From the NCBI GenBank assembly GCA_043228905.1, contig JBHGNT010000005.1, positions 20,088,001-20,152,000 of the forward strand: a DNA stretch of 64,000 bases, read 5' to 3'. The notes beneath the pieces are model-generated. The model made no database searches, was not told the DNA's origin, and worked only from the letters and a program-made list of their open reading frames with translations. Origin of the DNA: Azolla caroliniana (lineage: Eukaryota > Plantae > Polypodiophyta). Made by a program: the position numbers and the translations under genes. Of the stretch, positions 14,302 to 48,032 are shown one piece after another; the first letter of the stretch is position 1, and every line of letters begins with the position of its first letter.

Positions 14302-17300
14302 TGGTATTAGAGTGTGAGGGTTAGAAATCCTTTGCTGCAGTTAGAAACCGTTAGGAAGATGAAAACCTAATTTCCAAAAAAAGAAAAAGACAAGAAGAAG
14401 AGAATGGACCGAGGAATGGCTAGCTCACTCTCGATGGAGAAGCTGGACATATCCAACTATGCATCTTTGTCGTACAAGATGCACCAGTACCTGCTCAAGC
14501 ATGGCTACTGGAGTTATGTCGAAGGAGCTAATAATGTAGCACCTGACGCGACACACAGGGACTTTTCGACTTGGGAACAAGCGGCAAGCATGGTAATGTA
14601 CTGCTTCGCGTCTAGTGTCAGTGATCAGCTGCTCAGCCATATCCGAGACGCCAAGACACCAAAGGAAGCTTGGGGAAACCTGAAGGTCTTCGTCGTAAGC
14701 ACCACGGCTCAGAAGCTACAACTTCGACAAAAAGATATGTCGGTGGCCAACTACACGACCTGAATTAAAGACATCTGCGACTCACTTGTGTCTATGAATG
14801 TGGCCATCGAAGAAGATGAGCTGGTGTAGGTCTGTCTCGGGGGCCTGGCGTCAAAGTTCGGAGCATTCCGGACGGCGTTATGTACAAGGGAGAATACGCC
14901 TTCTTTTTTGGACTTACAACCGATGTTCCTTGTAGAGGAGAACCACACGAGTGCATCGACGAGCACGCACACCAACAACAAGATGTTGTACACGGAGGTA
15001 GATAGGCCCTATGGACGTGGAGGTCAAGGCGGATCAACGCGCAATGTAGGCGGGCGGCAAGAGCAGAATCAGAGTCACAAAGATGGTGCCGACAATAATT
15101 TTGGACCCTCCGAAAACAAGGGGAGTCAAAGCGGCTCCGGAAGGGTCGTGACAAAGAAAACGAGTGCTGGAAGAAAAGAGCCAATTTAGACAAAGTCAGA
15201 TCGAACTGGAAAGACGCAGACATGCATCACCGATCACACTTCGTTAGAAGCTCGAAAGGAGCCGTCTCGGGACTGGCCCTCGTTATGAAGCATAAAGCCA
15301 ACTGAATGGCTACATCCAACTCAAAGTCAAAGGAAGTTTGGTATGTGGACTTCAGAGCTTCAAACCACATGACGAACCACAAAGAGTGGTTCTCTTTTCT
15401 CGAGAAGCTGAAGAAGCCGGGGGTAGTCGAAACCGGAGACGACACCCCACATCCCATCAAGCACATCGAAGATGTCCCTCTGCGCCATGTCGGCCAGAAA
15501 GGAATCGTGAGGAACGTCCTACATGTTTCGGCGATCACCAAGAACTTGGTGTCGGTCGACCAGATCGTAGATCCAAGAATGCAGGTCTGATTCACTCACC
15601 ACAGATGCTTCATCGAGGAGGAAGGCCGGATCATCACGCAAGGGCACCGCTATGTTCGTGAAAGGGCAGAAGGTTGAGTCGGACATCGACCAATGGCATA
15701 AGCGGATAGGCCACATCAACATTCAGAAGCTTCAAGAGATGCAGTCAAAACATGTTGTTTCCAGACTGCCGAAGTTCAGTGGTCGGAAAGGTCAAATATG
15801 TGAATCTTGCCAGCTCGGGAAGCAACATAGGCTTCCATTCCGATGTGTGAGGACTGGCTCAAAACATGAGTATTGGCAAGAGTTGATATTTCGTCTCCTT
15901 CATCAATGATTTCAGTCGACAAACTTGGATCTATTTGATCGAGAAGAAGAGCGAAGTTTTCTCATGCTTCACGGACTTAAAGAATTATGTTGAACAAGAA
16001 ACCGAAAGGAATATCAAGTGTCTGAGATCGGATGGTGGAAATGAGTACTTTTCCAGCCAGTTCACTAGTTATCTACAGGCCAAGGGAATTCGCTGAAGCA
16101 AAATGGTGTGGCCGAACGTTGGAATTGGACGTTGGTAGAAGCAACAAAGGCAATGCTAGAAGAGAAGTGCATGCCCCGGATCTATTGGGCTGAAGCAATT
16201 CGAATTGTCGTCTACATACAGAATCGAACATCTGCCTCAGGGACAAAGGTGTCGCCGCACAAACTGTATTTCGAGTGGAAGCCGAATTTGGCACACCTTC
16301 AAGTATTCGGCGACATTGCGTATGTCCATGTCCCAGGTGAGAAGTGGAAGAAACTAGATGCCAAATCCGAGAAGTGTATCTTGGTTGGCTACTCTGACGA
16401 GCAAAACGGGTACAAATGCTTCAACCCCCGTTCGAAGCAAGTCCGAGTTAATCATGATGTTGTCTTTGACGAATCAGCATCCTGGTACTTCTCATCACCT
16501 GGACTCGAGCCGATTGTTGCGGATGAGGCAGCGGTATTCGAACAGCCGGATAGTCTAACTTCTCTCCGGATCAGTGGATTGAATGAGGACCGGTTGAGCC
16601 AAAGCGGTCAACTCGATGACTAGCAAGCGAGTAGTGAAGACTCAGTCATGCTCTCCCTACGTAAGGAACCAAGGAGACGGTTCATGCACAAAGAGAATGT
16701 GAAGAACAAGATGTCGGAATACGATACCAACAGAGATGACTCGGATCAGAGCGGATCCGACTCCGGAAGGAACGAAGACAGACCTTCGGAAACGAAGTTT
16801 GTGTCAGCCAAGAAGGCCAAGAAATCGGCGAACCAAGGATTGCGCCAATCCACCGGCCCAAAGCACCCCGCAACTTGATACGGATACAACGAGTATATAA
16901 CACATCATCATGCATACATGGTGAAGGTGGCAGTCGTGCGTGAGCCGAACAACTACGTAGAAGCGGTTAAGGATCCGAATCGGTAGAAGGCCATGGAGGA
17001 AGAGATGCACACGCTCACGGAAAATGAGACTTGGGACTTGGTGGACATACCGAAAGGAGTGAGCCGATCGGTTGTCGGTGGGTGTACAAAGTCAAATATA
17101 ATGCCGATGGCTCCCTCAACCCGTACAAGGCCCGATTAGTGGCGAAGGGTTACAGGCAACAACACAGAATCGATTATGATGAGACCTTCACACCGGTCAC
17201 GAAGATGACGACTGTACGTGTCTTGCTTGTGGTCGCAACGAATCAACAAGAGGCTAGCAACATGATGACGATGTTCGAGCGGATGATACAAGAACAACGC

Positions 17301-18821
17301 GCGATGTCAGATATTGCGGCGGCAATGGAGCGTCTCGTGCAACGGAACGGGCCATTCAACGGGAAGAATGTGTTACGTTATTTGTGGAACTACAAGGCGG
17401 AGATACTACGGTGTGGAATACCGGAAGGATTGCAAGTGACATCCTTCAATCGAGAGGCTATTGATGGGCTTCAAGGGAGTATCCACGGGGCAGCGCTTGA
17501 AGAAGCATTGAAGACCACGTTCGCTATCAAGGACTCCTCCAAGGCAACGCGAAGAGGATTCAAAGATTGGGTGGAAACACCGGACAAGGGGTTGAAGGTC
17601 CTCTATGTATTTTTGGCATTCGAAAGTCGATTCGGGAGGTTCTCCGCGAGAGATCAAGCTATCCTTGCACCAGACAAAGTGATCATGTTCTTACGAGTTG
17701 TGGACGTCTGGGACCGGAAAGATCTTGGAGTGCTTCTAGAGGATATGAATACTGAGAGTGGCCTCACCAATACATGGGAAAATGTGTGGGACATCGTCGC
17801 ACGATACACAAAGAGGGGGCAATGGCTTGGTAATGAAGAAAAGAGGGTTTCGGAACCAATTCCGAGAGCAAGAGCTGGATTGGAAGATCACCAACCATGA
17901 CCCCGGGAGACTACGGCCGAAAAGGGAATCAATGTGACCACGGTGGAGCAATTGTTGAAGGAGATGGAAAATCTCAAGATTGTCATGGTGAAGAAATCGG
18001 AAGACCATCCCACGAGTTCCAAGTATATGGATCGTTGGTGCATATGGTGCGATCACACCGAACATGATCGGAAAGATTGCGATGAGCACAAGGAGGCTCT
18101 ACGACGGGATCTCATCTACTACGAGGGAAATCGGATCCATTCAATGGACTCTTGGAAGCCACTTCGACCGAACTTCCGAAAAGGCAGCATGAAGAAGGTC
18201 CTAGGGGAGGAGATTGTGGAAAAAAGTAATTATGCGACAACCGCGGGAATATGTGTGGGAGACATCTAGGGGAAAGTTGTCTTTCTAGCTGGAAGTGCTA
18301 GAAATCTCCGAGAAAACCGACTCTGATGAAATCCGAAGCACCACGTAAGGCATCTGAGAAGCTACGAGATGGGAGTGTGTCGTAGATAAGAATAGCATAT
18401 ATGCCTTATGTCAATTACATGAGGTGTATGTAGATGAGAAGCGACGGCGTAGAGATGATGCGACCGGACCATCGAAGATGCCAGAAAGCTAGAATTCCGA
18501 AAGGAAAGGAAAAGGAAAAATGACTACGACATTCAAACTGGCTTCGGACATCGAACAACAAACGGACTTAAAGAAGGTGTTCGAAGAGAGAATCCTTGAT
18601 AGTTCGGTGGAATTCTCCCTCTGAGAATTGCTCTGAATAGTGAAGAAAGAGTTCCATGACCTGGTCATGGATCTCGTGAAAAGAAAGAGGCAAGCTATGG
18701 AAGAATCAAATGCTCCAAGAGTGCAAATACCGTTCTAATGAACGATACAGAAATAGAGGATGAGATTCCGAACTCCCACTACACAAAGCCACACTTGGTA
18801 CGGGCAACTACGGAGACTCCA

Positions 18822-18910
18822 TGATGTTGGAGACGAGGTCGTCTATGCGGAAGATCAAGAAGCATTCGATTGGTTCTTGAATACTTGCGTATGACAGTTT
18901 CTAGGTCGTT

Positions 18911-18955
<45 letters not shown>

Positions 18956-21900
18956 CACAAAAGACTTTCTATTCAATAGAAACAATAATACAACACCCAA
19001 CCTTACAAAAAGGTTACAAGGTCACTATATATAGAGACCGACTTAGGGCAACTACCCTTTATGCTAATTACACAAATGGCCCAAAGGGATAGTGTGAATA
19101 CGTCCATTATACACTTGTATTCGACACTCCCCCGTAATGGGCGTATACATGGGTTATCTAAGATTACAGGTATAGACTTAGGTTCTCGGACATATCAGCT
19201 TTGTTCGAGTCGGCAGGGTCCGAAGGCAGAAGACCGAACTGGTCGGGTCGGAACAGTTGAAGCCGATCATTAAGGAACTGATGTCGGTTGTCGGGAACCA
19301 TCCTGCTCTGTGTCCGGCTCTAACCGGACTGGTTTGTCGTTACGCCCATCTGATGCCGAAGAAACCGAAAGCGGTCTGCCGAAAGACACTTGGTCATTCC
19401 ATCTGCGACATTGTCGGTTGTGGATATTTTCTCTAGACCGATTTTCCCTGAAATGACGCAGTCCCGAACGAAGTGATATCGAACGTCGATATGTTTGGAG
19501 GCGTTGTGGTGAACCGGATTTTTTGACAAGGCAACAGCACCTTGACTGTCGCTGTAGACAACTGGAGCCGAGTCATGGTCGACTTGTCGAAACGTGTGCG
19601 CCAGCCGACCGAGCCACAAAGCTTCTTTTGCTGCGTCGGACGCAGCTACATATTCTGCTTCGGTCGTTGAGGTCGCTGTGCACTCCTGAAGTTTCGACTT
19701 CCACGAGATTGCTCCATTGCCGAATTTGAAGCAGTATCCGGTTGTTGATTTCCGACTGTCTGTACAGCCGGCGAAGTCCGAGTCGGTGTAACCGACTACG
19801 CCTGAGGTTCGGTTCGGACCGAAAAGAATGCCATGGTCTTTTGTGCCAGCCAGATATCTGAACACATGCTTGACTGCGTTCCAATGCGATCGGCCAGGAT
19901 TGTGCATAAATCTGCTAACGACTCCTACGGCATGAGAAATATCAGGTCGTGTCGCGACCATCAGGTACATAAGGGAGCCGACTGCCGGTGCATACGGTAC
20001 CGACTTCATATCTTCCCCCTCCGGGCCGGATGTCGGGCAGTCTCGCTGAGAGAGCCGAAGATTCATTGGGAGCGGGGTTGAAGCAGATTTGGCTGATTGC
20101 ATGTTGAAGCGTTCCAAGACACGTCGGATATAGTCGGTCTGAGACAAAAAAAGATGTCGTTTATCGCGATGCCGACTAATCTTCATGCCGAGTATGTGTC
20201 GTGCCGGACCGAGGTCCTTCATGGCAAACTTCAACCGCAGTTGCCGAAGGAGATCGGCAAGTTCGCCCGCGTGGCGTCCAGAAATTAGCATGTCGTCCAC
20301 GTAAATGATGAGGAAGATGGGTGATCCATCTTGAGCTGTGTTGGTGAAGAGACAATGGTCCTCATCGCTTTTGGAGAAGCCGATCGATTGGATGAAGTCG
20401 TCGAACTTCTTGTACCATTGTCGTGGTGCCTGTTTGAGGCCGTATAGACTCTTCCTGAGTCGGCAGACTAGATGTTCTTGGCCAGTTGCCACGAAGCCTT
20501 TTGGCTGCTCCATATAAATTTCCTCCTCGAGATCAGCATGGAGGAAGGCTGTTTTGACATCTAGCTGAATCAGCTCCAAGTTGTCGGCTGCCACTACGCC
20601 GAGTAGAAAACGAAGGGTTGTCATTTTCACCACTGGTGAAAAAATCTCGTCGAAGTCGACGCCATATTCTTGTCGGAAGCCCTTCGCAACTAATCTGGCC
20701 TTGTACTTTGGGGTGGTCGAATCAGACGTCTCTTTTAGTCGATAAACCCACTTGCAAGGAAGAGCACGTCGGTTCTTAGGTAATTCGACCAGATCCCAAG
20801 TCTTGTTTGCCCGAATGGAGTGCATTTCCGACTCCATCGCCAGATGCCAGGTGGCTGAATCGACAGATGTCGATGCTTCTTCGTAAGACGTCGGTTCGCC
20901 GGCGTCGGTGAAGAAAATTCCAGGAGAGTACCTCTCCGGAGGTTGCGACAGTCTCTCGGATCGTCGAGGTATGATTGGACTGGTCGCATCAGGTATCGTG
21001 GTCGGATGGTCCGAAAGCGGATTGTTCTGCTGTGCCGAGTCGGAGTTGTCCGAGTCGGTAGTGTAAGGTTCAGCTACCCGTGAAGCTGACCGTGTGTTGA
21101 GAGCGGGGCCTTCTTGAAGGGTCGGCACATCGGAAAATGTTACCCTTCGGACTTCGATCGGTTTTTCGACTGATGGATTCATAGCCGACTCGTTGAACAC
21201 AACGTCCGAACTTCGGACAATTTGTCTGCGTTCGGGATCCCAGAGTCGGTATCCCATTTCGCCGTCGGATCCATATCCAAGGAAAATGCATTTCCTGGAC
21301 CGAGGTGCAACTTTTCGGCGATCATCTTTCGGAATAAGGGCGTACGCCTCGCATCCGAAGATCCTCGGCTTGTCGTAATTCGGCTTACTGCCGATCCATC
21401 GTTCCTGAGGAATTTGAAGTCCTAGAGGTCTACTTGGCGACATATTGATTATGTGTACTGCCGTGAGTAGAGCCTCTGCCCAGAAGCCATCCGACAGTCC
21501 GGAGTGTTGGAGCATGGAAACTATCCGTTCTTGGATTGTCCGATTCATTCGCTCTGCAATCCCGTTTTGCTCCGGACTGTGTGGTGCCGTAAATTCTCGT
21601 CGGATGCCGCGTTGTCGGCAGAATTTGACGAATTCTTCTGATTTGAACTCTCCCCCATTGTCGGTCCGAAAGCATTTCAGTTTTCGGTCGGTTTGATTTT
21701 CTACCATAGCGAGCCAATCGGAGAAGATCGAGAAGACCCGATCTTTGGTGCGAATCGGATAAGCCCACACCTTTCGAGTCGAATCGTCAATAAAAGTGAC
21801 GAAGTAAGAGGCACCGCCGAGAGACTGATGCGGCATTGGGCCACAGACGTCCGAGTGGACCAAATCAAGAGGTCTCGTTTCTCTTGGTGCTGATGTCAGG

Positions 21901-24084
21901 TGTGATGCGGCTGCTTGTTTGCCATACTGGCAATGCTCGCAGAATTGATGGTCGGAGAAGGAGAGTTTAGGGATGTATCCGGCTCTAGATAGATGCGTAA
22001 TGCCGGCCTTGCTGAGGTGTCCTAATCTTCTGTGCCATAGTGATGACACAGGAATATCCACCAAAAACAGGTTACCCTCTCTGAGCGTAACATGTAACGG
22101 ATACAGTGAGTGTATCTTGGGTCCTCTAGCAAGCAGGAGGTTCCCCCTGTGGAGTGTCCACCCTCCCGAAGAAAAACCGGCACGAATGCCGTCTTCATCT
22201 AGTTGTCCGACTGAGATCAATGGCCTTGAGAGCTCGGGTACATGTCGGACATTGTGGAGTACAAGTGTAGAGCCACCTGCAAGGTTGAGCTCTACTGTGT
22301 CGATTCCGATGATGTCACAGTGTTGTGAGTTGCCGACTCGAACTGAGTCGGAGTGACGGATCGTATATTGCCGAAATTGGGATCGATGAGGAGTCACGTG
22401 AAATGACGCGCCCGAATCTAAGAGCCATGTGCTCGACTCTTCAGTCGTGAGTAGGACTTCTGATCCGACTGGATTTTCGATTGATAGTATATTCGGGTCG
22501 TCTGGTAGCACATCAGCTGAGAAGCTGACGTAATTGATCTCCTCATGCCGGCCACTCTTCTTGTTGTTCTTGTTCTTGAGTGCGCGGCAGTCGGCTTTGA
22601 TGTGTTCGGGTTTCTTGCAGTAGTTGCAGATTCGGTTATCCCGTGACTGGCTCCGTCTTCGCTGATTGTTCGGCGGTCGTGAGGAATCTCTTCCTCGTAT
22701 GTTCGATCGGTCTGTCGAACATTGTACTACATAAGCGTCGTCTGTTGAGTCTTTGGCGAAAGACTTTCTCCGAGCTGCTTCGGTCAGGATTGCGCTCGTG
22801 ACTTCGGAGTATTTAACAGCCGTGGTTGACGCGTTGCACACGGTTGTGACGAAAGTTTCCCATGATGAGGGAAGGCTACTCATGAGTATCATTGCTCTGA
22901 GTTCATCCTCGATTGCCGTCCCCTGTGACGAGATTTGGGAGCTTATGCTTTCGTACTCATTGAGGTGTGCTTGAACCGAGTCGGATTCTTTCATCCGCAA
23001 GTTGTAGAGGCGCCGGATCAGAAACATCTTTGTTGCGGCGACCTTCTTTTCGTAAGTGTCTGACAGTGTTTTCCACAGGTCGAATGCTGTCGTACACGAT
23101 TGCACCGTAAAGTATACCGATTCCGATAGGTGCATCCGAATCGTGGCGCGGACGATTCTGTCCAGCTTCTGCCACTCAATTGGTTTGTATCCTTCTGGAG
23201 GTTCTTCATTTTCGATGGGATCGATTTGCCCCTTGACTATGAGATAGTCCTGCATTTGTTCCTTCCAGAAGTTGAAGTTCGATCCATCGAACTTTCGTAG
23301 ACTCATTTCTGACGAGCCGGATGTTGATGCCATCAAATTGGGTTTCGGTTGACGAAGCTCGGTTCGGAGTTGACTACGAGCCTTGTTGGAGTGCAGCCGG
23401 TTGGCTCACCCGATATCGTTCTAGTCGGATTTGAACCCGAGTCGGTTCGGCTTCGGAACTTGCTCGAATTGACTCCGGTAGCTTGAGGGACAGAACCGAC
23501 TGGTCTTCCCGAATGTTGCCGAGTCGGAGTGAGCCCGGTTCGCTTCGGATATATATGCCGAATACCGATTATTGAAACCGATTATCTGGACCGATTCTGC
23601 TTCGGTTGACTGCAGCAACGAGAGAGACGGATCCAACTGATCCTCCCGAATGTCGATCAGCCAGATGAAGCACGAATTTGGGGTTGTTGTCTTGAGACCG
23701 ATCTGCACCGAGTGGTTACAATGAGCGGCGTTTGATTACCTCTTCGGATGCCGTTTAACCGGGTGGAGCACGATCGTGTCAATGTTGCACAAGGGGATTT
23801 CACCTCGAGCGGTTACGATCACAAGGGACAGAGTACAACCTGCTGGCTTACTCCAAGCGAAGATGATCTAACGCGATGAGATGCAAGCCTCGTTTCTCTT
23901 CTTCTTCGAATGACGCAGGAAACCGAATGCTGTGCAGGCTGAGACGACGGCCGACAGCAGATTGAAGGACCGACTACTGTGCAGGCTCTGATACCAGATG
24001 TTGGAGACGAGGTCATCTATGCGGAAGATCAAGAAGCATTCGATTGGTTCTTGAATACCTGCGTATGACAGTTTCTAGGTCGTT

Positions 24085-24125
<41 letters not shown>

Positions 24126-24296
24126 CACAAAAGACTTTCTATTCAATAGAAACAATAATACAACACCCAACCTTACAAAAAGGTTACAAGGTCACTATAT
24201 ATAGAGACCGACTTAGGGCAACTACCCTTTATGCTAATTACACAAATGGCCCAAAGGGATAGTGTGAATACGTCCATTATACACTTGTATTCGACA
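18822..24296 (-). mobile_element. Young full-length Ty1/copia
   Basis: LTRs 18825-19126 and 23999-24296 (2 substitutions plus a 4-nt (AG)n length difference). PBS-iMet 23985-23996. PPT 19127-19134. TSD CTCCA (18817-18821, 24297-24301). Intact polyprotein. Confidence 0.97.
19320..23336 (-). CDS. Copia Gag-Pol polyprotein, 1338 aa, uninterrupted
   Basis: CNYCKKPEHIKADC, WLLDSGASFH, LWHRRLGH, HSDVCGP/FIDD/DNGGEF/GIAERMN, QLDVKTAF, YVDDML, YTDSDFAG/TEAEY/ADGMTK. Confidence 0.97.
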   Translation of the reverse strand: MMASTSGSSEMSLRKFDGSNFNFWKEQMQDYLIVKGQIDPIENEEPPEGYKPIEWQKLDRIVRATIRMHLSESVYFTVQSCTTAFDLWKTLSDTYEKKVAATKMFLIRRLYNLRMKESDSVQAHLNEYESISSQISSQGTAIEDELRAMILMSSLPSSWETFVTTVCNASTTAVKYSEVTSAILTEAARRKSFAKDSTDDAYVVQCSTDRSNIRGRDSSRPPNNQRRRSQSRDNRICNYCKKPEHIKADCRALKNKNNKKSGRHEEINYVSFSADVLPDDPNILSIENPVGSEVLLTTEESSTWLLDSGASFHVTPHRSQFRQYTIRHSDSVRVGNSQHCDIIGIDTVELNLAGGSTLVLHNVRHVPELSRPLISVGQLDEDGIRAGFSSGGWTLHRGNLLLARGPKIHSLYPLHVTLREGNLFLVDIPVSSLWHRRLGHLSKAGITHLSRAGYIPKLSFSDHQFCEHCQYGKQAAASHLTSAPRETRPLDLVHSDVCGPMPHQSLGGASYFVTFIDDSTRKVWAYPIRTKDRVFSIFSDWLAMVENQTDRKLKCFRTDNGGEFKSEEFVKFCRQRGIRREFTAPHSPEQNGIAERMNRTIQERIVSMLQHSGLSDGFWAEALLTAVHIINMSPSRPLGLQIPQERWIGSKPNYDKPRIFGCEAYALIPKDDRRKVAPRSRKCIFLGYGSDGEMGYRLWDPERRQIVRSSDVVFNESAMNPSVEKPIEVRRVTFSDVPTLQEGPALNTRSASRVAEPYTTDSDNSDSAQQNNPLSDHPTTIPDATSPIIPRRSERLSQPPERYSPGIFFTDAGEPTSYEEASTSVDSATWHLAMESEMHSIRANKTWDLVELPKNRRALPCKWVYRLKETSDSTTPKYKARLVAKGFRQEYGVDFDEIFSPVVKMTTLRFLLGVVAADNLELIQLDVKTAFLHADLEEEIYMEQPKGFVATGQEHLVCRLRKSLYGLKQAPRQWYKKFDDFIQSIGFSKSDEDHCLFTNTAQDGSPIFLIIYVDDMLISGRHAGELADLLRQLRLKFAMKDLGPARHILGMKISRHRDKRHLFLSQTDYIRRVLERFNMQSAKSASTPLPMNLRLSQRDCPTSGPEGEDMKSVPYAPAVGSLMYLMVATRPDISHAVGVVSRFMHNPGRSHWNAVKHVFRYLAGTKDHGILFGPNRTSGVVGYTDSDFAGCTDSRKSTTGYCFKFGNGAISWKSKLQECTATSTTEAEYVAASDAAKEALWLGRLAHTFRQVDHDSAPVVYSDSQGAVALSKNPVHHNASKHIDVRYHFVRDCVISGKIGLEKISTTDNVADGMTKCLSADRFRFLRHQMGVTTNQSG

Positions 24297-24307
24297 CTCC
24301 AGTCTGG

Positions 24308-24824
24308 TGTCGTGAAGATTTTCGTCCATAGGCGAAAACTGGGGTGGAATAGGCAAATCGGTGGTGTGCACCATGTGCACATGTATACTAGGAAATGGTG
24401 TATAGAGATAAGAGGGGGAAATTTTATCCCACATTGTAAGGTCCCTCCCTCCTTGGGCTATAAAAGGGAGGGGTCACTTATGAAGGGGTTGCCTATTTTG
24501 AGGGAGAGAGGCATACCACTTAGGTCGAGGGTTTCCTATTCGGTTTTAGGGTTTCGGTTAGGGTTTTCTTCTTGGGTTTTCCTTTAGGGTTTTTCTCATA
24601 GTCATTTGGTGCGGCCATGGCGGCCACCATTGTAAAGCATTTATGCTTCCTTAAGCTAACTTGTTGAGCATCTTGCCCCTTCTATTCTATGTTATTGTCT
24701 TATTTCTTCTCACCTCCTCTTGAGCTAAGCTTCCATTTTGTGTCTTATTCTTTCTCCTCTACTCCCTAGTCCAAGACCCCCGTGGTCCCGCCCCTTCTAC
24801 ACGCACGCGCGTAACAACGTGACA
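24308..24824 (+). repeat. 5' LTR of the gag-only element
   Basis: TGTCGTGAAG...ACGTGACA. TATA (CTATAAAAG) near 24458. Telomere-like TAGGGTTT motifs at 24544-24593. Confidence 0.95.
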
Positions 24825-24828
24825 TCTT

Positions 24829-24846
24829 TGGTGAACCCGACGTGAA
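24829..24846 (+). promoter_or_regulatory. Primer-binding site complementary to cytosolic tRNA-Trp
   Basis: TGGTGAACCCGACGTGAA is the reverse complement of the plant tRNA-Trp 3' end TTCACGTCGGGTTCACCA as I recall it. It lies 4 nt after the LTR end. Confidence 0.88.
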
Positions 24847-24861
24847 GGGCGGCAAGGGAGC

Positions 24862-27324
24862 ATGGAGGTGGAAGAAGACTTCGACTTCGAGGAGATGATG
24901 GCAAAGATCGTAATGGATGCGCGACGGAAAAGGGCGAGGCGAGATGCGGCTCAACAAACCGTCGAGAGGGTGGTCGATCGAGTCGGCCGATTCAACGGGG
25001 ACGATGTCCCGAGGTTCTTGGAAGCGTACAATGCCGAGATGACGGAGTGGGGCGTGGACGAAGCGATGCGGCTAGAGTATTTTCGTCGAGTGGCGGCCGT
25101 ATCGGTGCATAAAGAGGTCAAGGAGCTTCAAGAAGCTCACGAGTCATGGGAGTCCTTCGACGGAGCTCTAATGGAGGCATACGGATACGCGAAACCAAAG
25201 TGGGTATGCCGGCAATATGATGGGGAGCGGTCGGCAGCGACTTGGCCCGCGAGCGACGGAAAAGAGAGGGCGGTGGGTGGCTACACACCACCGCCGGAAG
25301 AGAGCTTGACGCACGATCAACCGGAGGAGTACGACTTCGAGGCGTTGGTATGGGAGGCGTGCGAGAGCGTGAAGGTGAAGTTCGAAGCCAAGGAAGGGCT
25401 TATTACGGAGTTGGGCCCAAGCGGATCGAAGGATGCGGAGGAAGAAGCCTCCCTACGCGTGGAGACATCAAGTGGGGAGGAGACAAGAAGCGGTGTCGGG
25501 TCCTTACCCACACCGATTCTAGAGACTCCGGCATCCGGCTCGAGAGCCGGTGTGAGACCTAGAGTGATGAACGGTGGCGGCGGCAAGGCAGGCAACCAAG
25601 ACGATGGCAAGGAGATCAAGGAAGAGGAGGTGGCAAGCGTAATCAAGGCTTCCGCGATCGGGGACGGGGTAGCCACGGACAACGACGTCCAGATAGAGGT
25701 GGCTACGGACATAACGAGCGGCGGTGCCGCGACCTTACACACACCAGTCCTAGAGGCTCCAACGGTCGGCCCGAGTGCCGGCGTGAGACCTAGAGCGACG
25801 GGCGGTGGCGGCGGCAAGGCGGGCAACCGAGACGACGACATGGAAGAGACGGCGGCAAGCGTAATCGAGGCTTGCGCAATCGGAGGCGGGGTAGCCGCGG
25901 ACAATGACGTCCGGACGAAAGCGGCTACGGACACAACGAGTGGGGGTGTCGGGTCCTTACGCACACCGGCCCTAGAGGCTCCGGCGGTGGGCCCGAGAGC
26001 CCACGTGAGACCTAGAGCGACGGGCGGTGGCAGCGGCAAAGTGGACGATCGAAACGACGACGAGGAAGGTCATAGCGGACGGAGGAGAGACCCCTCGACA
26101 CCGAGACTAGAGACTACACCGGTTGCGCTCGAATGCCAACGTAAGACCGGAGACAAGGACGGTGGTCGTGAGGAGGCATGGCCCGGTACGAACACGTGCG
26201 AAGATGAGGATGCGAGGCCCAGAACGGGCATATACAAGAGGACCGACGGAGAGGTCGGGAACGGCAAGGAGGAGAGAGTCAGGAACCGACTCGACCGGAA
26301 GATGAACCGGTCGATAATCCGGCACGACCGAAATACGACGTGGAAGACGATTGGAGCGGGGTTCGGTCAACTGGGCCCGAACCGAAGAAGAGCCGGCAAG
26401 GCCAGATTTGTTTGTACAAACATGTACCAGCCGGTTACGATTACGGAAGGGAGACGACCAAACCGGAACTCGATTGGCCGAGCCCGATCCGGGCGAAGGC
26501 TAAGTCGGCATGATTGGAGGTCGAGGCGAACGAGCCACAACACCCGATGGGAGCCGGTGAGCATGAGAAGGAGGCTAACCGGGCACAGTGATTACGGCTT
26601 GGCGGAAGACCGAGAGCAAGGGAAACCCTCCACACCTATTCTTGAGACTTCGGCGGTTGCGGATCAACATAAGACTGAAGAGACGGCAGGTGGCGGCGAG
26701 GAGTTAGAGGCCGATGCGGAGTTGGAGACCGGTGTAGATATCCGGTATGGAATAATGGACGAGCGGGGCCAAGACGGCAAGCCCGAGTCGGAATGGGCTA
26801 CGGCAACGAAGGATGAAGAGACCAACGCGAAGGTCGAGTCTACGGTGGATGAGGCGCGTAATACGAAGTATGCCCTACGGCGTAAAACGGAGCATGCACT
26901 ACGGCTGGCGAAGGGCCTAGAAGCAAGCGTGCATTCGGAGGAGCCGCAACGAGTGACCGACGATGACGGTCGAAGGAAGCCTTCGAGAGGCAAGCGCGGG
27001 ACGACAGACGGTGCGATGAGACGCCAAGATCGACGGAACGAGACGAGCGTGATCGGCATGAACGAAGGATTGTGTCTGGGAAAACGGAGGGGATGCGTGG
27101 AGAACGGAGGGTCAGGTACCATGAAGAGAAAATGGGGCATCCCGAAGGATGTGTGCGGCCGAGCGGGCCAAGCGGGCCAAGAGGGCGCAAGTCGAGGCGA
27201 GGCAGTAACGAGAGCCTCGAGGGACACCGACACGGAGGTCGGGATGACGATACGCTCTACTACGAGAGAGCACGGAGAGCAAGGGAGAATAGAGGTGTGC
27301 GTAATGGGGTCACCTAAGGGCTAA
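24862..27324 (+). CDS. Gag capsid N-terminal-like domain fused to repetitive low-complexity region (820 aa)
   Basis: ATG 15 nt after the PBS. VERVVDRVGRFNGDDVPRFLEAYNAEM resembles host Gag [27 protein letters not shown]. Rest is G/E/R/T-rich with repeats. Confidence 0.75.
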   Translation: MEVEEDFDFEEMMAKIVMDARRKRARRDAAQQTVERVVDRVGRFNGDDVPRFLEAYNAEMTEWGVDEAMRLEYFRRVAAVSVHKEVKELQEAHESWESFDGALMEAYGYAKPKWVCRQYDGERSAATWPASDGKERAVGGYTPPPEESLTHDQPEEYDFEALVWEACESVKVKFEAKEGLITELGPSGSKDAEEEASLRVETSSGEETRSGVGSLPTPILETPASGSRAGVRPRVMNGGGGKAGNQDDGKEIKEEEVASVIKASAIGDGVATDNDVQIEVATDITSGGAATLHTPVLEAPTVGPSAGVRPRATGGGGGKAGNRDDDMEETAASVIEACAIGGGVAADNDVRTKAATDTTSGGVGSLRTPALEAPAVGPRAHVRPRATGGGSGKVDDRNDDEEGHSGRRRDPSTPRLETTPVALECQRKTGDKDGGREEAWPGTNTCEDEDARPRTGIYKRTDGEVGNGKEERVRNRLDRKMNRSIIRHDRNTTWKTIGAGFGQLGPNRRRAGKARFVCTNMYQPVTITEGRRPNRNSIGRARSGRRLSRHDWRSRRTSHNTRWEPVSMRRRLTGHSDYGLAEDREQGKPSTPILETSAVADQHKTEETAGGGEELEADAELETGVDIRYGIMDERGQDGKPESEWATATKDEETNAKVESTVDEARNTKYALRRKTEHALRLAKGLEASVHSEEPQRVTDDDGRRKPSRGKRGTTDGAMRRQDRRNETSVIGMNEGLCLGKRRGCVENGGSGTMKRKWGIPKDVCGRAGQAGQEGASRGEAVTRASRDTDTEVGMTIRSTTREHGEQGRIEVCVMGSPKG
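25491..26065 (+). repeat. In-frame coding tandem repeat, about 222-231 bp x 2.5
   Basis: Units start at 25491, 25722 and 25944 (GxLxTPxLExP...VRPRxxGGGGKAGNxDD). Partial copies near 26093 and 26630. Confidence 0.9.
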
Positions 27325-28047
27325 AGAATGAGCGCATATTCGGGGGACAACATCGGCGCACGGGAAGAGCTTACGAAAGGCAAGTGCGGAGCGGGAAGAG
27401 TCGACACACTGAGGTGTTCGGCATGCGGAGACGATAAAACCAAAGGAGGAACATACGCGGCACGAAAAGGGCGGGATCCAGAGTGCGATCGGAGAGATCG
27501 GGAGCGCACCCGTAGGACATACGAGCCTTTGCGAGGAATGCACGCGGCGAGAGACGGAGCAGTGAGGTGCCGGTATCAGTGGATGATCGGCGAGCATGGA
27601 AGGCTATGTCTTGAGAACCAGGGGAGGTGTGTGGAGAGCAATGGACTACGCGCCGGGAAGAGGAAGCGCGGCGTCCTGGAAGGCATTCGAGGCCAAGCGG
27701 GCCAAGAGGATGAGAGTCGAGATGAAGCGGTAACGGGAGTCACGAAGGACACTAACATGGTGGTCGGGATGACGGTATGCTCTACGGTGAGAGAGCACGG
27801 CGAGCAAAGGAGAAGCGAGGAGTGCGTAATGAGGTCGCCGAGGGACCAAAGAACGAGCGCATGTTCGGGAGACAACAAGGGCACACGGAAAGAGCCTACG
27901 GAAGGTGAGCGCAGAACGGAGGGAATCGGCACGAGGTGTACGAGACGAAGAGAGGATCGAGCCGGAGATAGAACACAAGCGGTAGGCGAGGGGCGGAATC
28001 CGGCGAGCAAACGGGGTGACCGAGGGCCTAATCGGAGGACCTACGTG
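27049..28047 (+). repeat. Diverged in-frame duplication, about 525-534 bp x 2
   Basis: 27049-27525 versus 27583-28047 (LCL...CVE...GQAGQE...EAVT...DT...VGMT..ST.REHGEQ...CVM.SP). Confidence 0.88.
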
Positions 28048-28671
28048 GCAGACAAAGTAAGAGTGACCGGATCGGCAATGGCGTTCGGGAGGACCGACCG
28101 GGGAGGAAGGCGCATGCGGTGGATATGGCGGTTCGGATGGAGTCGATGTTTCGGGGACACACGGTGGACGTGGTGCATCAGTTGGAGCCATCGGCTCGAG
28201 GACGTGCGATGGATACGGTGGAACGGGATGCTACGACGGTTCGGACGGGCATGCTCGAAATGGAAAACGAAGCCGAGCAAGGCCAACGAGGACACAATGG
28301 ACCTCGGTTTTATCACCATGGCCGCAAAATCTCACCTCTTCTCCTTTCTTGGCACATACCGGTGGATGTGCGGTTTGGTGGGGGCGGATGTCGTGAAGAT
28401 TTTCGTCCATAGGCGGAAACTGGGGTGGAATAGGCAAATCGGTGGTGTGCACCATGTGCACATGTATACTAGGAAATGGTGTATAGAGATAAGAGGGGGA
28501 ATTTTATCCCACATTGTAAGGTCCCTCCCTCCTTGGGCTATAAAAGGAAGGGAGGGGTCACTTATGAAGGGGTTGCCTATTTTGAGGGAGAGAGGCATAC
28601 CACTTAGGTCGAGGGTTTCCTATTCGGTTTTAGGGTTTTGGTTAGGGTTTTCTTCTTGGGTTTTCCTTTAG
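27328..28671 (+). CDS. In-frame continuation of the gag-only ORF, running into the 3' LTR
   Basis: Same frame as 24862. Separated only by TAA 27322-27324, which aligns with CAA 27847-27849 in the sister repeat. Confidence 0.5.
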   Translation: MSAYSGDNIGAREELTKGKCGAGRVDTLRCSACGDDKTKGGTYAARKGRDPECDRRDRERTRRTYEPLRGMHAARDGAVRCRYQWMIGEHGRLCLENQGRCVESNGLRAGKRKRGVLEGIRGQAGQEDESRDEAVTGVTKDTNMVVGMTVCSTVREHGEQRRSEECVMRSPRDQRTSACSGDNKGTRKEPTEGERRTEGIGTRCTRRREDRAGDRTQAVGEGRNPASKRGDRGPNRRTYVADKVRVTGSAMAFGRTDRGGRRMRWIWRFGWSRCFGDTRWTWCISWSHRLEDVRWIRWNGMLRRFGRACSKWKTKPSKANEDTMDLGFITMAAKSHLFSFLGTYRWMCGLVGADVVKIFVHRRKLGWNRQIGGVHHVHMYTRKWCIEIRGGILSHIVRSLPPWAIKGREGSLMKGLPILRERGIPLRSRVSYSVLGFWLGFSSWVFL

Positions 28672-28908
28672 GGTTTTTCTCATAGTCATTTGGTGCAACC
28701 ATGGCGGCCACCATTGTAAAGCATTTATGCTTCCTTAAGCTAACTTGTTGAGCATCTTGCCCCTTCTATTCTATGTTATTGTCTTATTTCTTCTCACCTC
28801 CTCTTGAGCTAAGCTTCCATTTTGTGTCTTATTCTTTCTCCTCTACTCCCTAGTCCAAGACCCCCGTGGTCCCGCCCCTTCTACACGCACGCGCGTAACA
28901 ACGTGACA
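28389..28908 (+). repeat. 3' LTR of the gag-only element
   Basis: Near-identical to 24308-24824, preceded by PPT GGTTTGGTGGGGGCGGA. Confidence 0.95.
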
Positions 28909-29417
28909 CCGGATTGGAAACATCAAAGAGCACGTAGTTGCATTGATTGATCATGGATCAGAGATCAACTTGATGTCCAAGGAGTTCTACCGGAAGGGAA
29001 AGTGGCCTATTAACGTCAATCATGGATGGAAGATCCGCGCAGCCACTAAAGCAACGGAAGACCTATCTGTGGCTTGTCCGTAGAAAAGAAGGTGAAATCG
29101 CCAATAGTGAACAAAAGAGGAAAGAAGTCTCTGGAGATCCAACACTTCGGAAGTCCATGGATATCGGACATACCTTCACAAATGATACCCGGAAGAAACT
29201 CTAGATCGGTGGAGATTAGTTCCTCTTATCGAAGGAAGAAGAAAGATTTTGGAGATGTTGGAGCATCATGGAAAATCATTCGCATTCACATCAAGAGAGA
29301 TAGGGTGCATTGATCCAAAGATAGTGGAGCCGATGGTGATCTTCACGATTGAACATGTGTCGAGGAACCTGAAGCTTATTCCGGTGCCATGGGAGTATAT
29401 TCCATAAAATCATTGAC

Positions 29418-30624
29418 TTGCTCAAGGAGAAGGTGGTGATGGACATTCTAGAGCCATCAAATGCTTCGTACTCAGATCGATGGTTTACGATTCTGAAGAA
29501 GAATGGGTCCCTCCGGTTCATTCAAGATTTGCAACTGGTGAACAAGGTCATGATTCGGAACTCCAGAGTCGGTCCAATAGTGGATGAATTTGCAGATGCA
29601 TTTGCCAGATGCACGATATACTCCATCGGGGACCTATACTCCGAGTATTACCAATTCCAACTAGCTGTGGAGAGCCGAGATATCACTACAATGTGGACAC
29701 TAATAGGACTAGTCCATATGTGTACGCTACCACAAGGAGCGACGAACTCGGTCGCACATATGATGAATGTGATGAACAAGGTGCTCCGAGATTGCATCCC
29801 GGAGATAACAATGTCGTTCCTAGATGACATTCTGATGAAAGGATGTGCGGTGGAAGAAAAGGATGAGAATATGGATGATCGGGAATGTCGTAAGTTCATA
29901 GTCGATCATATTCGCAACTGTGAGAAAGTGCTACAGAAGTTAGAAGATGCGCACTTAATACTCTTCGGAGAGAAATCGGCATTCGGACAAGAAGAGATAT
30001 TGGTAGTCAAACATCTATGTGGGCCCTACGGCCGAAGTCCGTCACCAATCAAGATCGATGCGATTCAAGCTATGAAAGAAATATGTGATTCACAATCCGA
30101 AGTCCGTAGATTTCTTGGTGCGTGTGCATTTTATCACATATGGATTCCGCACTATGCACACATTGCGGACCCACTCTATCACTTGTTGCGGAAGGGTAAG
30201 AAGTTCGAATGGAGACCGGAACATACCAAAGCCATGAAGAAGTTCAAGAAAACACTACAGAGGGTGGAAGCACTTAAGAAGCCAAACTATGACCGACCGA
30301 TCATAGTGACGGTTGATACAAGTCCAATCGGGATCGGATGGGTCATCAACCAAGTTGACTCGGATGGTTCACGATACCCGATTCGATTTAGAGCAAAGGT
30401 TCTCAATGAAAGACAACGCGGATGCACAAGTCAAAAGAGAATTATGGGGAGTCGTGTCAGCAATAAAATCAGATCGAGATTATTTGATCGGAGACAAAGT
30501 AGTGATTGAAACGGATTGTCTTCCAATACTCGGGATGGTGCGATGTTGCAAGGTACCGGGTGTAGCCGATGTGGCTATGCTAAGATGGATTGCATATGTA
30601 AAGTCACTTAATCCGGAGGTTTGA
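29418..30624 (+). pseudogene. Gypsy RT-RNase H of the host element
   Basis: GSLRFIQDLQLVNK, LPQGATNS, FLDDIL, VRRFLG, VTVDTSPIGIGW, ETDCLPI. Frameshifted. Confidence 0.9.
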
Positions 30625-32209
30625 CACATTTCGGCGAAAGACAACACGGTAGCGGATATGTTATCAAGGGCCCGGTTCGAGGATGACATAGTTGAACCAG
30701 ATAATGAAAAAGTTTTCGAATACTACTTTACTTCGAAGCACATATGCCGGCTGAACATGATTCGGGAGTTCCAGGAAGACGAAGACGAATACGAGGGAGA
30801 CAGCTTACTGATCGGGAAAGTGCTACAAGAAATCGAAGAATCATCGGACAATAAAGAAAGGAGAGCCGAGCCGAAGGAAGAAACGACAAGTTCGGAAGTT
30901 CTTCTTGAACAATGGATTAATTTGGAGGGACCCGAAAAGACTAGATGGTATACCACTCCGAGTAGTCGGCACAAAGGAACAACAGAAACAAGTAATATCC
31001 AAATTTCACAAATCCGATTGTGTTGGACATCGGGGAACATGGGCAACATTTGCAAAGATCAAGCAAAAATATTGGTGGAAGAATTTGTACAAGGATGTAG
31101 CGGATTTCACCAAAAGTTGACTCCGGAGTTCAATACCAGGACGAATTACATCCAACATTCTCACCGACAATCAACTTTAAATGGATGGTCGACATCGTGG
31201 CCATGCCGACCGGGATCGGACAAAAGAAGTACTTGGTTCTATCTCAGAAGGATCTGACGAACCAAGTAGAAGGTCGGGCGCTACGGAGAAAAACATGTTT
31301 TGCAGTATGCCAATTTCTCCTGGAAGAAGTGTTATGTAGGTACAGGTGCGTAGGAGAAGTGATTGCGGATCGGGGAGAACTTGACTCTGATAAGATAGGG
31401 AATTCTTCGCTAAACATGGAGTACGGCTGACACTAACCACAACATACAACCCAAATGCAAACGGGAAGATTGAATGAGGACATAGTCCAATCGTGAAAGC
31501 ACTTGCAAAAGCGTGCGACGGGGGGGTGAAGAATTGGCCGCAAATGCTTCTGCATAGTTCCGATTGGATATATGCCAATGGAACTTATGACCAGACAAGC
31601 TCCGGTAATGCCTACGGAAACCACAATTACATGGACGGTACTACCATGGAAGGAAGAGTTGAGTCAGGAAGAACTACTAACAGTCTGGATACCATAGCTA
31701 GAAGGAAGACCGGAAGATGTAGTGGAAGTTGTGCACCGACAATAAGAAGCGAAATTTTGGAACAAACGTTGATTCGATAAAAAGCACTAACTTTGACTGC
31801 TACATATTGAAGAAGGGGATTGGGTAATAGTCTACGACAGTAGTCTGGATCATCAACACAACTCAATACAGGAATTTGCTAAAAGGTGGTTCAGACCATA
31901 CAAAGTTCGAAAAACATTCGACAACGGAACTTATTGGCTAAGTGAGCTAGATGGAACAATTCTTTGAGTGCCTATAGCGGGGAAGTGGGTGAAGATTTTC
32001 AAGAAACAAATTAACGAAGAACCCTATGTAGTCTTAGACAAACCCGACACAAAGGAGCAATCGAATAACAATCACGAAGGTGCGGAAAGTGAGTTGGCTT
32101 TAATAATCGACATAGGGGAAGAGGCAAAGGGTGCTTCAGATGAAGAAGAGTAACAAGTATTGGAAACTTCAGCACATACCGGAGGATGCGTAGGTTAGGA
32201 GGGGGTGAG

Positions 32210-32949
32210 TGTTGTAGTGTACTTTGTACACTGCGTAAAATATGTGTGGAGAACCCGATTGACTAAGTATAAAGAAATAGGAAAAGAAAAATACTAAAAT
32301 AATTACATTATATGCATAGGGCAAGACTTGAACCCTATACCTCCATGTTAATAATTTGTAGCTTTACCATTATATTAACACATCATAAGTGTTAAAAAAG
32401 TAGATATCCCACATACAAAGATTATTTCACATATATTTTTTTTAGGAAATGCTACTTTTACACGTAGAGTGCATAAAACTTTAGTTAGAAGAATACGCAT
32501 GATCGAAAATTAAGGTTCTTCATGCACATTTCACGTGCATGAACACTATTATTAGAAGAAAAAGCATGAAGTCTATAGTTCGAAAAAGCATGGGTTGCTA
32601 TATACTTAGTCACTCCTATCATTATATAAGGGTGGGGAGCAAATTGTAATGGTTGTTGATTCTTGGGTTTTTTATTACGATCTAAATATTGATTAATATA
32701 ATACTTGTGGGATTCACAAGTTTTGATCTCTTTTTTCAATCTATTCTAAATTATTTCAATTTAATACTATGATTTTAAATATTAAGTTAAACTAGTTCAC
32801 TATATTTGTGGGATTCACAAACTTCTACCTCTCTTTCTTATAATCTATTTATATATTCTTATTAACCTTAAAACTCTCCTCCTCCTAGTCCAAAACCCCA
32901 GCGATTCCCACCTAACTCACGCAACGATCCGGCGCTGAAAGGCACGACA
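32210..32949 (+). repeat. 3' LTR of the host gypsy
   Basis: Follows a PPT, TGTTGTA...GCACGACA ends, AT-rich. Copia RT/RNase H resumes immediately after. Confidence 0.72.
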
Positions 32950-38800: not shown

Positions 38801-39823
38801 CGATTATACAACGTTCCTCAAACGATCAAATCAATCTTACTTCATCAATATTATACATATCCATGACATGCAAATGGTGCATGTGATTGGCATGGGATGG
38901 CATCGATCGCAAATACAAAGCATGTATTATTGGCAAAGAAAGGGAACAGAAGGAAGGCACACGAAAGGGGCGCGGAGCATGGCAGCATGATGGAAGTAGA
39001 TACGTGACCAGGGTAAAACAAGCACGGAGGCATCGGTTGAAGGCCGGAACGGGATATCGTGTGAAGTGAGGAGGCATTTCTACATTGTGTGTATGATAAG
39101 AGGGTGTGAGTGCGAGAAAAGGATTCAAGAGATTGGCCGAAGGCCCTGACTGAGCCTAGGGCCTTGGACCTAGGATCCTGAGCCTCCTGGGGGCTTGAGT
39201 TTGGCCCTCCTGAGACTTGAGTTTGGGCCCTGAGTCTGGGCCCTGGGCCTGGGGCCTGGGATTGGAAGTTTTCAGGAGAGTCATGAGGTGTGTAGAATGT
39301 GGGTGTTTTTGTGAGGAGAAGGAGAAGTGATCATTTTGATGAGGACAACCATGTGAAAGAAGAGAAAGAAAGAGTCAAATGAAAAAAGCAGGAAACAGAG
39401 TAATGGGGTCTCTCTACCAAACAATAAGAAGAAGAAGAAGAAGAAGAAGAAGAAAGAAAGAAAGAAAGAAAACAGAGTAGACCATCTGATGTTGATGATG
39501 ATGATGATGGGTAAGGCTCTGCTTTTCCTTTGATTAATCCTATCGAAGCTTTGGTGGTTCCCCCCTCCCCTCCCATGTTGTAAATCTCAGTAAACCCCAT
39601 TTGAGATATTACTGTTTTTCTTTTTCATTATGAGATTTATGCATAGCTTTCATGGCTATGGATGAGGACACAATGTAAGCTATAATTCAGGAAATCATTA
39701 TTGAGATCACTGATTTGAAAGGATGCTCCGGAGTTTTTTGTCTTGTTTTCCGTTTACTATGTATATGATGTAACTCAGAAACCCTAATTGAGATCACTGT
39801 TTCGTCTGAGATTCATAGCTTTC

Positions 39824-43960: not shown

Positions 43961-44836
43961 TCACAACACATCTGACATACTTTTGCTCATTTGCTCCAAC
44001 AGTGACAAGGCTTTGCGGCGTGCTCTTGCTGTGCCATTCTTTGCGAGTTCCCTTAATGCACCGTGAGCACCAACAACTTGGCATACAAGCATTGTTTGTG
44101 ACGGGTCATTTATGCAAATTGCCAAAAGAACAGCTGCAGCATTCTCTTTGTTCCGTGATGAACCCACTGTTATGAGGTTCACTAAGATTGGAATAGCTAA
44201 TGCTTCACTGATGGCAGCTCGTCCTTCTACGTGTGTTGCTAAGACAGCAAGTATTGCAAGAGCTTCATCAATCATCTCTAATTGTGGATCAACAAGAAGT
44301 TGCATTAAAGGAGGCACAACCATTGCTCTCACAGCTCTTGCTTTATTGCCTTGGTAAATTGAAAGGTTAAAAAGAGCTGTGGCAGCATCTTTTTTTCCCC
44401 GTAAAGTGCCATCACAAAGTAGATTTACAAGGGCAGGTATTGCATCAGAGGCTCCTATTAAAACTTTATTGTCATCCACAACAGAGAGACTAAAGAGTGT
44501 GGCAGCCGCATTCTCTCTTGCTTCCATGCTTCCATGCTTAAGAACCTCAACAATGGGATCAATTGCACCTGCTTCTACAATCGGTCCCTTATTTCCCTCA
44601 TGTATAGACAAGTTTAAGAGGGCTGTGACAGCATGCTCTTGTGTGCCTTTATCACAGGATGATAAAAGCCCAACCAAAAGAGGAATAGCACCAGCCTCTG
44701 CTATACATACTCTGTTCTCAGCATTTCTCTTTGCCAATGCTCGTAATTCCCCTGCCGCTTCTCTCTGAAATTTTGGCTGCCCATTCATCAATTTTTGTAA
44801 TAGCATTTCTATTGTCTTCCTATCTCCAGCACCCGT
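43961..44836 (-). CDS. U-box/ARM E3 ligase (PUB13/14-like), exon 5: ARM repeats
   Basis: [66 protein letters not shown]. Acceptor TTTTTCTCAG; the exact acceptor is less certain. Confidence 0.92.
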
Positions 44837-45011
44837 CTGAGAAAAACATGGTAGCTTTACATGTTTTAAGCCTTTTTTGCAATCAAGAATGAAAAGACCA
44901 CTTATGTGGAGAAAAAAATCTATATGAGAGAAATGTTTATATGGAAAAGCACCTATACATGAAAATGACCATGTGAGAAAAGACATTTAAAGTTTGTATG
45001 AGAATGCAAAC

Positions 45012-45173
45012 CTTTTTTGTCAGCTTGATTCCATGTGTCTCACACCATTGTGCAATCAAGCTTTTTAATACATAATTGGGTGTCAATATTGTATGTGACA
45101 AGACTTGTTGCGTTTTTGGGCAAGTTTTATTTCCGGCATCAATCCATTGCTGGATACAGGCTCCCTCGTATGT
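45012..45173 (-). CDS. PUB exon 4: second half of the U-box
   Basis: [49 protein letters not shown] boundaries, 162 nt, phase 0. Confidence 0.9.
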
Positions 45174-45253
45174 CTTCAAACGAAAGACAAGAATTAAGAA
45201 AAGAATCCAAAAGAGAAACAATAGACAATCGACAAGTTAGATAAAAGACGAAC

Positions 45254-45688
45254 CTGGCCAGTAGCTACAATGACTGGATCTTTCATTATCTCTAGTGAGA
45301 TAGGACAGCGAAAATCATCCGGTATGACAAAAGAACCTTCTTTCTCAAGTTGCATATCCTTTTCTTCATTATCGAATTCATTTAAAAATGATTCACCTTC
45401 AAATAGAAGACCTTTAAGCCGTGCAAGCAACATTGACATTTGCTCATATTGTTCCATATTCTCATTACTGCTCTCTAGGTGAAGAGAGTTCAAAGCTCTC
45501 AACTCTTGCTTAAACTCAGATAATGTCTTGAGTTGCAATTTATCAGCCAACCTTTCCAAGGCACCCTTGGTATCTTCTTTGTCAATACTGTCTTGGGACA
45601 ACACAAACGTGAGATCATTATAAATATCCATATCTTGGATATCTGCTCTTGCTTTTGCTCTCTTCAATTGGGCATGTGCTAGTTCAAC
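45254..45688 (-). CDS. PUB exon 3: UND domain end and U-box start
   Basis: VELAHAQLKRAKAR...IPDDFRCPISLEIMKDPVIVATGQ. 435 nt, phase 0. Confidence 0.92.
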
Positions 45689-45806
45689 CTGCATTTTGAA
45701 TCAATTAAATAACACACAATCAAAAATGTAAAACGTCAACACACACACAAAGAAACACATAAAATGTTGCAGAATAAGCATAAAGACTCTCAAACGTAGG
45801 ACATAC

Positions 45807-45923
45807 CTGCTCTCTGACTTCATCAGATATATCTAGAAGCTTGAAAATATTGACATCCAGTGCCTCTTCCAGATCTGCCATCACTGATGCAAATCGTTTT
45901 ACGATAGTTTCACATTCAAAAAG
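45807..45923 (-). CDS. PUB exon 2
   Basis: LFECETIVKRF...LDISDEVREQ. CAG acceptor and GTATGT donor, 117 nt. Confidence 0.88.

Positions 45924-47702: not shown

Positions 47703-47705
<3 letters not shown>

Positions 47706-47744
<39 letters not shown>

Positions 47745-47962: not shown

Positions 47963-48032
<70 letters not shown>

Follow-up and report, generated by a model that had tools for sequence, protein, structure and literature searches.

The locus and the element

The window, a 64,000-nucleotide (64-kb) stretch of genomic DNA from Azolla caroliniana, contains a decayed gypsy element that hosts a shorter LTR element of 4601 bp (24308-28908). The features of the host, the element and its long reading frame are as follows.

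17262-32949 (+): decayed host gypsy, comprising gag with a CCHC knuckle, PR, RT, RH and IN, with an inferred 3′ LTR at 32210-32949; the element sits in its protease region
24304-24307 (+): left target-site copy, CTGG, with one mismatch to the right copy; the host protease frame continues across both copies
24308-24824 (+): 5′ LTR, 517 nt, TG...CA, with TATAAA at 24459
24829-24845 (+): primer-binding site (PBS), starting 4 nt past the 5′ LTR
24862-25197 (+): ATG, N-terminal helix and predicted Gag capsid N-lobe (codons 1-112); pLDDT 84-96 over residues 11-110, dArc1 match
25195-25200 (+): junction left where 83 codons are missing in frame (C-lobe, residues 111-193 in sister protein P0004), bridged by at least 10 contigs
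25198-25461 (+): remnant of the last C-lobe helix, linker and post-capsid helix, a helix common to helper-type Gag
25483-26066 (+): three in-frame repeats, acidic/Gly-rich and near-neutral, at offsets of 231 and 222 nt
27073-28045 (+): two in-frame repeats, near-neutral, at offsets of 534, 528, 525 and 522 nt
27322-27324 (+): premature stop at codon 821 of the window copy; sisters are open from the ATG to the 3′ end
28108-28273 (+): basic Trp/Arg-rich tip, conserved in distant family members and lying 3′ of the stop in the window copy
28351-28388 (+): pre-PPT motif and G-rich PPT, common to the host gypsy
28389-28908 (+): 3′ LTR, 520 nt; the long frame terminates inside it at 28669-28671 (LTR position 283)
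28909-28912 (+): right target-site copy, CCGG, which fits NCGN

The two LTRs differ by four transitions and two indels (about 0.8%), which at plant substitution rates corresponds very roughly to 0.3-1 million years. The PBS, which we take to be that of tRNA-Trp, is the sole match within the 64-kb window (0.01 expected), and no tRNA gene was found in the window. The PPT proper (about 28375-28388) contains some pyrimidines. The first-pass annotation had cited near-identical LTRs, a PBS, a PPT and a target-site duplication (TSD); the first three stand, and the TSD is corrected to 4 bp with one mismatch.

The absence of PR, RT, RH and IN was borne out by a Pfam scan of the frame and by comparison of the host pol with the element interior, which returned a single 21-aa match on the minus strand (E 0.05). 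Neither part of the long frame had a Pfam family at E≤1, the window Gag not being detected directly, and Rfam gave 0 matches at E≤1. A reading of the tail as a pol remnant was rejected, as no such remnant was detected, and minus-strand ORFs of 250 and 218 aa, neither with a Pfam match, were read as shadows of the plus-strand frame.

The host gypsy is of helper type by the end motifs that it shares with the element (pre-PPT and LTR end); neither its PBS nor its 5′ LTR was found in the window. A copia RT fragment (Pfam RVT_2; 17028-17900, +) reads in frame into the host Gag. Only about 10 host bases separate the element from a copia (18823-24297, -) inserted in the same host protease region, whose LTRs are nearly identical and whose 1361-aa ORF (19320-23405) is intact. 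A second copia (58056-63430, -) is very recent, with an intact 1402-aa ORF (58713-62921) and LTRs that carry 28-nt tandem repeats and are identical over the 300 nt compared. Two host genes lie downstream: a 705-codon frame (39788-41905, +), presumably related to molybdenum-cofactor sulfurases and class V aminotransferases, and a U-box/ARM E3 ligase with relatives in Streptophyta (43961-47555, -), which is adjoined by a low-complexity array with an 8-nt period (47691-48118).

Contig depth at 24700-24953 and 28256-28500, which hold the LTR end, PBS and pre-PPT motif, was about 10-30 times that of the interior, and contig joints jump most of the interior, for example from 24824 to 28357. Other families, internally deleted or different, likely share the element's ends. 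A pyrimidine tract (28331-28350) directly precedes the shared pre-PPT motif, at a point where the frame varies between copies; it could be an RNA stability element, and ENE-like elements are described in EVD (PMC12501189).

A long frame with a predicted capsid N-lobe

The long frame runs from the ATG at 24862, through a single stop at codon 821, onward to 28671 inside the 3′ LTR. That one stop compares with 54 and 32 after the ATG in the other two plus-strand frames, ruling out a chance ORF produced by purine bias. A tail of over 1000 codons had been proposed, and the frame does extend to 28671, but the stop at 27322-27324 breaks it and the product of this copy is 820 aa. The stop is not among the 40 variant rows listed out of 544, and 0.36 stops of this kind are expected since insertion. 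As it removes the basic tip, which the window copy hence does not make despite the original claim, this copy is likely a damaged member of its family.

The N-terminus resembles the host gypsy Gag, as first suggested (41% identity over 56 aa, E 1e-9). A model of residues 1-200 was confident over residues 11-110, with a Gag capsid N-lobe fold predicted for residues 28-109, in line with the capsid assignment of the first-pass annotation. The best 20 structural matches to the N-terminus were all Gag-derived capsids, and the dArc1 capsid N-lobe matched with Z 11.3 and an rmsd of 1.8 Å over 77 residues (VIA-align). Because Z values below 13 can arise by chance for helical folds, and both capsid lobes have the same fold, the N-lobe call rests also on the position of this region in sisters with a whole capsid. 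The model of one such sister, P0021, has two lobes with a hinge near residues 107-110 (best Z 8.7, VIA-align); Foldseek returned no match to the whole-capsid model at E≤0.001. A complex of the window N-lobe and four helper-type capsids (P0088), predicted without alignments, scored 0.00 and was counted neither way.

Whole-capsid, N-lobe-only and C-lobe-only family members

Compared with P0004, the window protein lacks residues 111-193, almost the entire C-lobe, in frame. The element has neither a C-lobe nor a CCHC knuckle, confirming what was first reported of it. The knuckle was found in none of the family proteins, even those with a whole capsid, and is present in 12 helper-type Gags.

Whole-capsid sisters without pol have intact frames of 618-1419 aa, and no pol family was found in the five that were scanned. 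The 1419-aa sisters (P0004, P0014, P0016, P0017 and P0020) differ from one another at 2-20 sites and may be copies or resamplings; P0013 has 1116 aa, and more distant sisters are P0002 (673 aa), P0035 (624 aa) and P0083 (618 aa). Each of these proteins, the 1419-aa ones included, joins a whole capsid to tail and tip within a single frame. P0003 and P0005 terminate early. Because these sisters have both lobes together with the same tail, the base design of the family is a whole capsid plus tail. The tail did not replace the C-lobe, as had been supposed; the window copy is instead short of 83 codons in frame.

The same 83-codon loss is found in five proteins: the window protein, P0043 (92%), P0048 (62%), P0081 and P0082. 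A reciprocal loss of the N-lobe, with a common junction, is found in P0057, P0060, P0063, P0073 and P0144 and in the chimera P0039, and in each of the two losses the break falls at the hinge, around model residues 107-110. Single-instance capsid deletions (P0076, P0077, P0095, P0099, P0110, P0122 and P0141) were excluded from these counts as possible decay of dead copies, and P0136 was discarded as a spurious repeat match.

We found the window junction again in assembled contigs from public DNA runs. At least ten bridge it among the 32 contig pieces listed, a further 1040 lying outside that listing, with at least 31 letters on each side and 1-16 differences: three in run X1, four in X4, two in X5 and one in X6, plus two borderline cases. 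They span four studies, X1 possibly being the source sample and one of the other three carrying another organism label, and loose contig ends in all four runs lead into the whole-capsid form. Thus, the N-lobe-only form multiplied once the C-lobe had been lost, and whole-capsid sisters exist alongside it. Read depth gives no copy count here; several junction-bridging haplotypes inside single runs indicate at least two copies, so the element is not single-copy. The recurrence of the loss in other proteins and contigs also rules out one-off decay of the window copy. Together, these results support the original description of a non-autonomous, multi-copy and recently moved parasite. Locus searches recovered two decayed loci in metagenome contigs and none in viral contigs or prokaryote genomes.

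Several other proteins combine Gag parts in different ways. P0093 and P0113 are chimeras of a helper-type N-lobe and a family-type C-lobe, which points to template switching between the RNAs of helper and parasite. In P0121, a helper-type capsid is fused in frame to the protease region, the knuckle and the middle of Gag being missing. P0120 and P0126, again without a pol family, represent a Gag lineage of their own, in which a whole capsid is combined with a long acidic tail that is unrelated; the capsid-plus-long-tail design may have arisen more than once.

A drifting tail, a conserved tip and the kept lobe

The bulk of the tail does not behave as a selected protein domain, contrary to the first reading. 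Its internal repeats in the window copy differ by 18.5% and 28% at the DNA level, and 34 of the 108 repeat codons with a single change are synonymous (32.7 expected), an omega-like ratio of 0.94. NG86 estimates for the tail are 0.72-0.95, and read variants in it are synonymous in 13 of 39 cases (10.6 expected; 39 of the 40 rows listed out of 544). The frame itself is kept. All seven repeat offsets (7/7) are multiples of 3, and the tail is 43-56% identical to those of sisters, about 10% drift or more per lineage; in simulations of 974 codons at 10% drift, 8.5 stops were expected and 0 of 2000 runs were stop-free, compared with the 1 and 0 seen. The sisters were found as long proteins, so that their intactness is subject to ascertainment, but their lineages still had to purge stops. 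The tail thus drifts almost neutrally while indels keep the frame and stops are purged. None of the three outcomes named at first pass as refuting the reading is fully realised: the element is not single-copy, the predicted fold is that of a capsid, and, of random frameshifts in siblings with a dN/dS near 1, the ratio holds for the tail (omega about 0.9-1) but the frame is preserved.

The C-terminal tip differs from the rest of the tail. A net basic C-terminal stretch was present in 6/6 long family proteins examined, and the Trp/Arg motif aligned in 9/9, even between groups with tails that align poorly elsewhere; this conservation is at the protein level only and could reflect an RNA signal. 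As regards the basic tail first proposed, it is this conserved tip that could stand in for a nucleocapsid in the family. The last 30-40 codons differ in frame between copies, with P0237 reading the same DNA in another frame.

Evidence of constraint on the capsid lobes came from variants and from comparisons between proteins. At the end of the N-lobe, 13 of 22 variants were synonymous (6.2 expected, P 0.002), and just past the junction 8 of 18 were (5.5 expected, P 0.15), whole and deleted forms being pooled in both tests. The kept lobe exceeds the linker in identity between the window protein and P0048 (73% versus 47%) and between P0057 and P0060 (79% versus 55%); between the window protein and P0043 there is no contrast (lobe 96%, linker 95%). 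Recombination may have inflated linker divergence in these comparisons, and those of three of the five N-lobe-only proteins span just the best-conserved last 29 residues.

A proposed cis-acting passenger Gag and its alternatives

We favour, at about an even chance of being correct, a reading in which the protein of this pol-less, Phygy-type gypsy family acts in cis as a passenger Gag, using one lobe for docking and carrying its own RNA along. An autonomous helper would build the particles into which the kept lobe docks; behind the lobe would lie a neutral spacer whose length is immaterial, and the basic Trp/Arg tip would take over from the lost zinc knuckle in binding the RNA of the element itself. 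Reverse transcriptase and integrase would be supplied by the helper through presumably shared PBS, PPT and LTR ends. One lobe would be enough for a minority subunit, so that N-lobe-only and C-lobe-only subfamilies could spread after in-frame losses at the hinge. The Ty3 capsid NTD is described in PMC4974528 as binding both the NTD and the CTD of other subunits; by analogy, a single lobe could plausibly join the lattice as a minority subunit. We infer translation, docking, RNA binding and the identity of the helper. Against a cis passenger, the comparisons do not single out selection acting on the N-lobe once the C-lobe was gone, since the variant test pools forms and the window protein and P0043 are equally conserved in lobe and linker. 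Non-coding mini-Ty1 elements are reported to be mobile with proteins supplied in trans (PMC4974528), so a protein in cis is unneeded in general, and a lobe-only subunit could, by analogy with Ty1 p18 as described in PMC13709905, poison the lattice. We also consider, more tentatively, that the lobes may be modular cargo tags: whole, N-lobe and C-lobe lineages would recombine, each lobe docking spacer and tip, and the halves may complement each other.

The main rival, which we regard as unlikely, places selection on the RNA. The ribosome would have to read from the PBS to the 3′ LTR for the genomic RNA to escape surveillance or to reach assembly, and the protein would be mostly a by-product. This would account for a tail with omega about 0.94 from which stops and frameshifts are purged, for coding sequences that close at the 3′ LTR or just within it, with three or more different final frames among them, and for the dispensability of either lobe; a study in Arabidopsis also describes translation state as deciding the fate of TE RNA (PMC8892269). 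It fits less well with the kept lobes being more conserved than linkers, with the hinge being respected by both losses and with the conserved tip. Moreover, long 3′ UTRs are reported not to predict NMD in moss (PMC6009662), and non-coding families of TRIM/LARD type are described as amplifying in plants (PMC13570524).

Alternatively, the half-capsid forms might be second-order parasites, only whole-capsid sisters making useful Gag and the lobe of the half forms being vestigial and refreshed by recombination. Both forms do occur in the same runs, the path from the window N-lobe to whole-capsid P0037 (0.16) is shorter than that to N-lobe-only P0048 (0.31), the best trees separate the deleted forms from each other, and the family is visibly mosaic (P0039, P0093 and P0023). 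Nevertheless, we consider this improbable: it leaves hundreds of open codons in half-capsid lineages unexplained, a diagnostic C-lobe of its own marks the C-lobe-only lineage, with 69-92% identity among its members, and the trees, which neither show nor reject a single origin of the C-lobe loss (AU p 0.10 and 0.065; 29 and 20 rows), leave one deletion event standing. The first-pass annotation had also raised restriction of the helper, the half capsid being a trans-dominant modulator kept to limit it. Lobe-only Gag is described as poisoning Ty1 lattices (p18 and Drt2; PMC13709905), and the C-lobe-only sisters share that architecture, but the restrictors in that account are C-lobes, not N-lobes. 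In addition, the element relies on a helper and has multiplied, which sets it apart from restrictors domesticated at a single locus, and the window copy lies within nested TE debris with a premature stop. Restriction thus fits poorly, and we hold it to be very improbable.

The family bears on why many pol-less plant elements keep a Gag, whether for donation to a helper, for self-packaging in cis or for an open frame only. It offers natural whole, N-lobe-only and C-lobe-only capsids on one backbone, which separates those options, and a kilobase-scale tail in which selection on the frame and selection on amino acids come apart, so that genome copies alone suffice to test whether protein or translation is what counts in cis. 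The family also illustrates how Gags with a single lobe, similar to the Ty1 restrictors, can originate and spread; if the modular reading were true, the lobes would represent a new kind of retroelement parasitism and raw material for lobe-only restriction factors. As Pfam misses the ORF, families of this sort have probably been classified as non-coding (LARD-type).

Comparison with known systems

In the open-access literature we found no account of pol-less Phygy elements, of amplified single-lobe Gag subfamilies or of a neutral, frame-locked tail. Among the closest known classes is TR-GAG, defined in PMC4350172 as elements of less than 4 kb, of which TR-GAG1 is described with a 433-aa Gag bearing a zinc finger. 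Like these, the element has two LTRs, a PBS and a PPT around a single Gag-like ORF without PR, RT, RH or IN, is present in at least two copies and was recently mobile. It differs from them, as they are described there, in its length (4601 bp, or 4.6 kb), in lacking a whole Gag (C-lobe deleted, no CCHC knuckle), and, across its family, in the 400-1200-aa low-complexity tail and the half-capsid subfamilies.

By its ends, the element resembles Phygy, a non-chromovirus Ty3/gypsy lineage of Physcomitrella whose members are reported to be 7.7-10 kb long, with a polyprotein over nearly the whole interior, a 4-bp NCGN TSD in 100% and a tRNA-Trp PBS in 81% of 186 elements (PMC6317226). The window element shares the 4-bp NCGN-type TSD (a single site, CCGG/CTGG) and has a Gag related to that of the host gypsy. 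Its PBS is, on our assumption, likewise of the Trp type. With 4.6 kb, no pol and no interior-wide polyprotein, it derives from a Phygy-like lineage without being a canonical member, a placement made by TSD and PBS.

Ty1 p22/p18 and Drt2 are likewise single capsid lobes of retrotransposon Gag, described as C-lobes that block assembly and derive from an internal transcript or a domesticated gene (PMC13709905). The window form, by contrast, is an N-lobe on a mobile element, and just the C-lobe-only sisters match the architecture of these restrictors.

Another close parallel is the wheat pair RLG_Quinta and RLG_Cereba, in which Quinta is described as centromeric, derived from CRM and a proposed donor of whole Gag (PMC11302176). 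Both Quinta and the present family are long-lived, pol-less gypsy elements with one ORF for Gag plus an extra domain and with recombining Gag variants. Quinta is described as sharing its PBS, PPT and LTR ends with a helper; here, the pre-PPT and LTR-end motifs match the host gypsy, and a PBS-like leader precedes the helper-type N-lobe of P0093. What sets the Azolla family apart from Quinta, as described in that report, is that single-lobe forms amplify and that the extension drifts neutrally.
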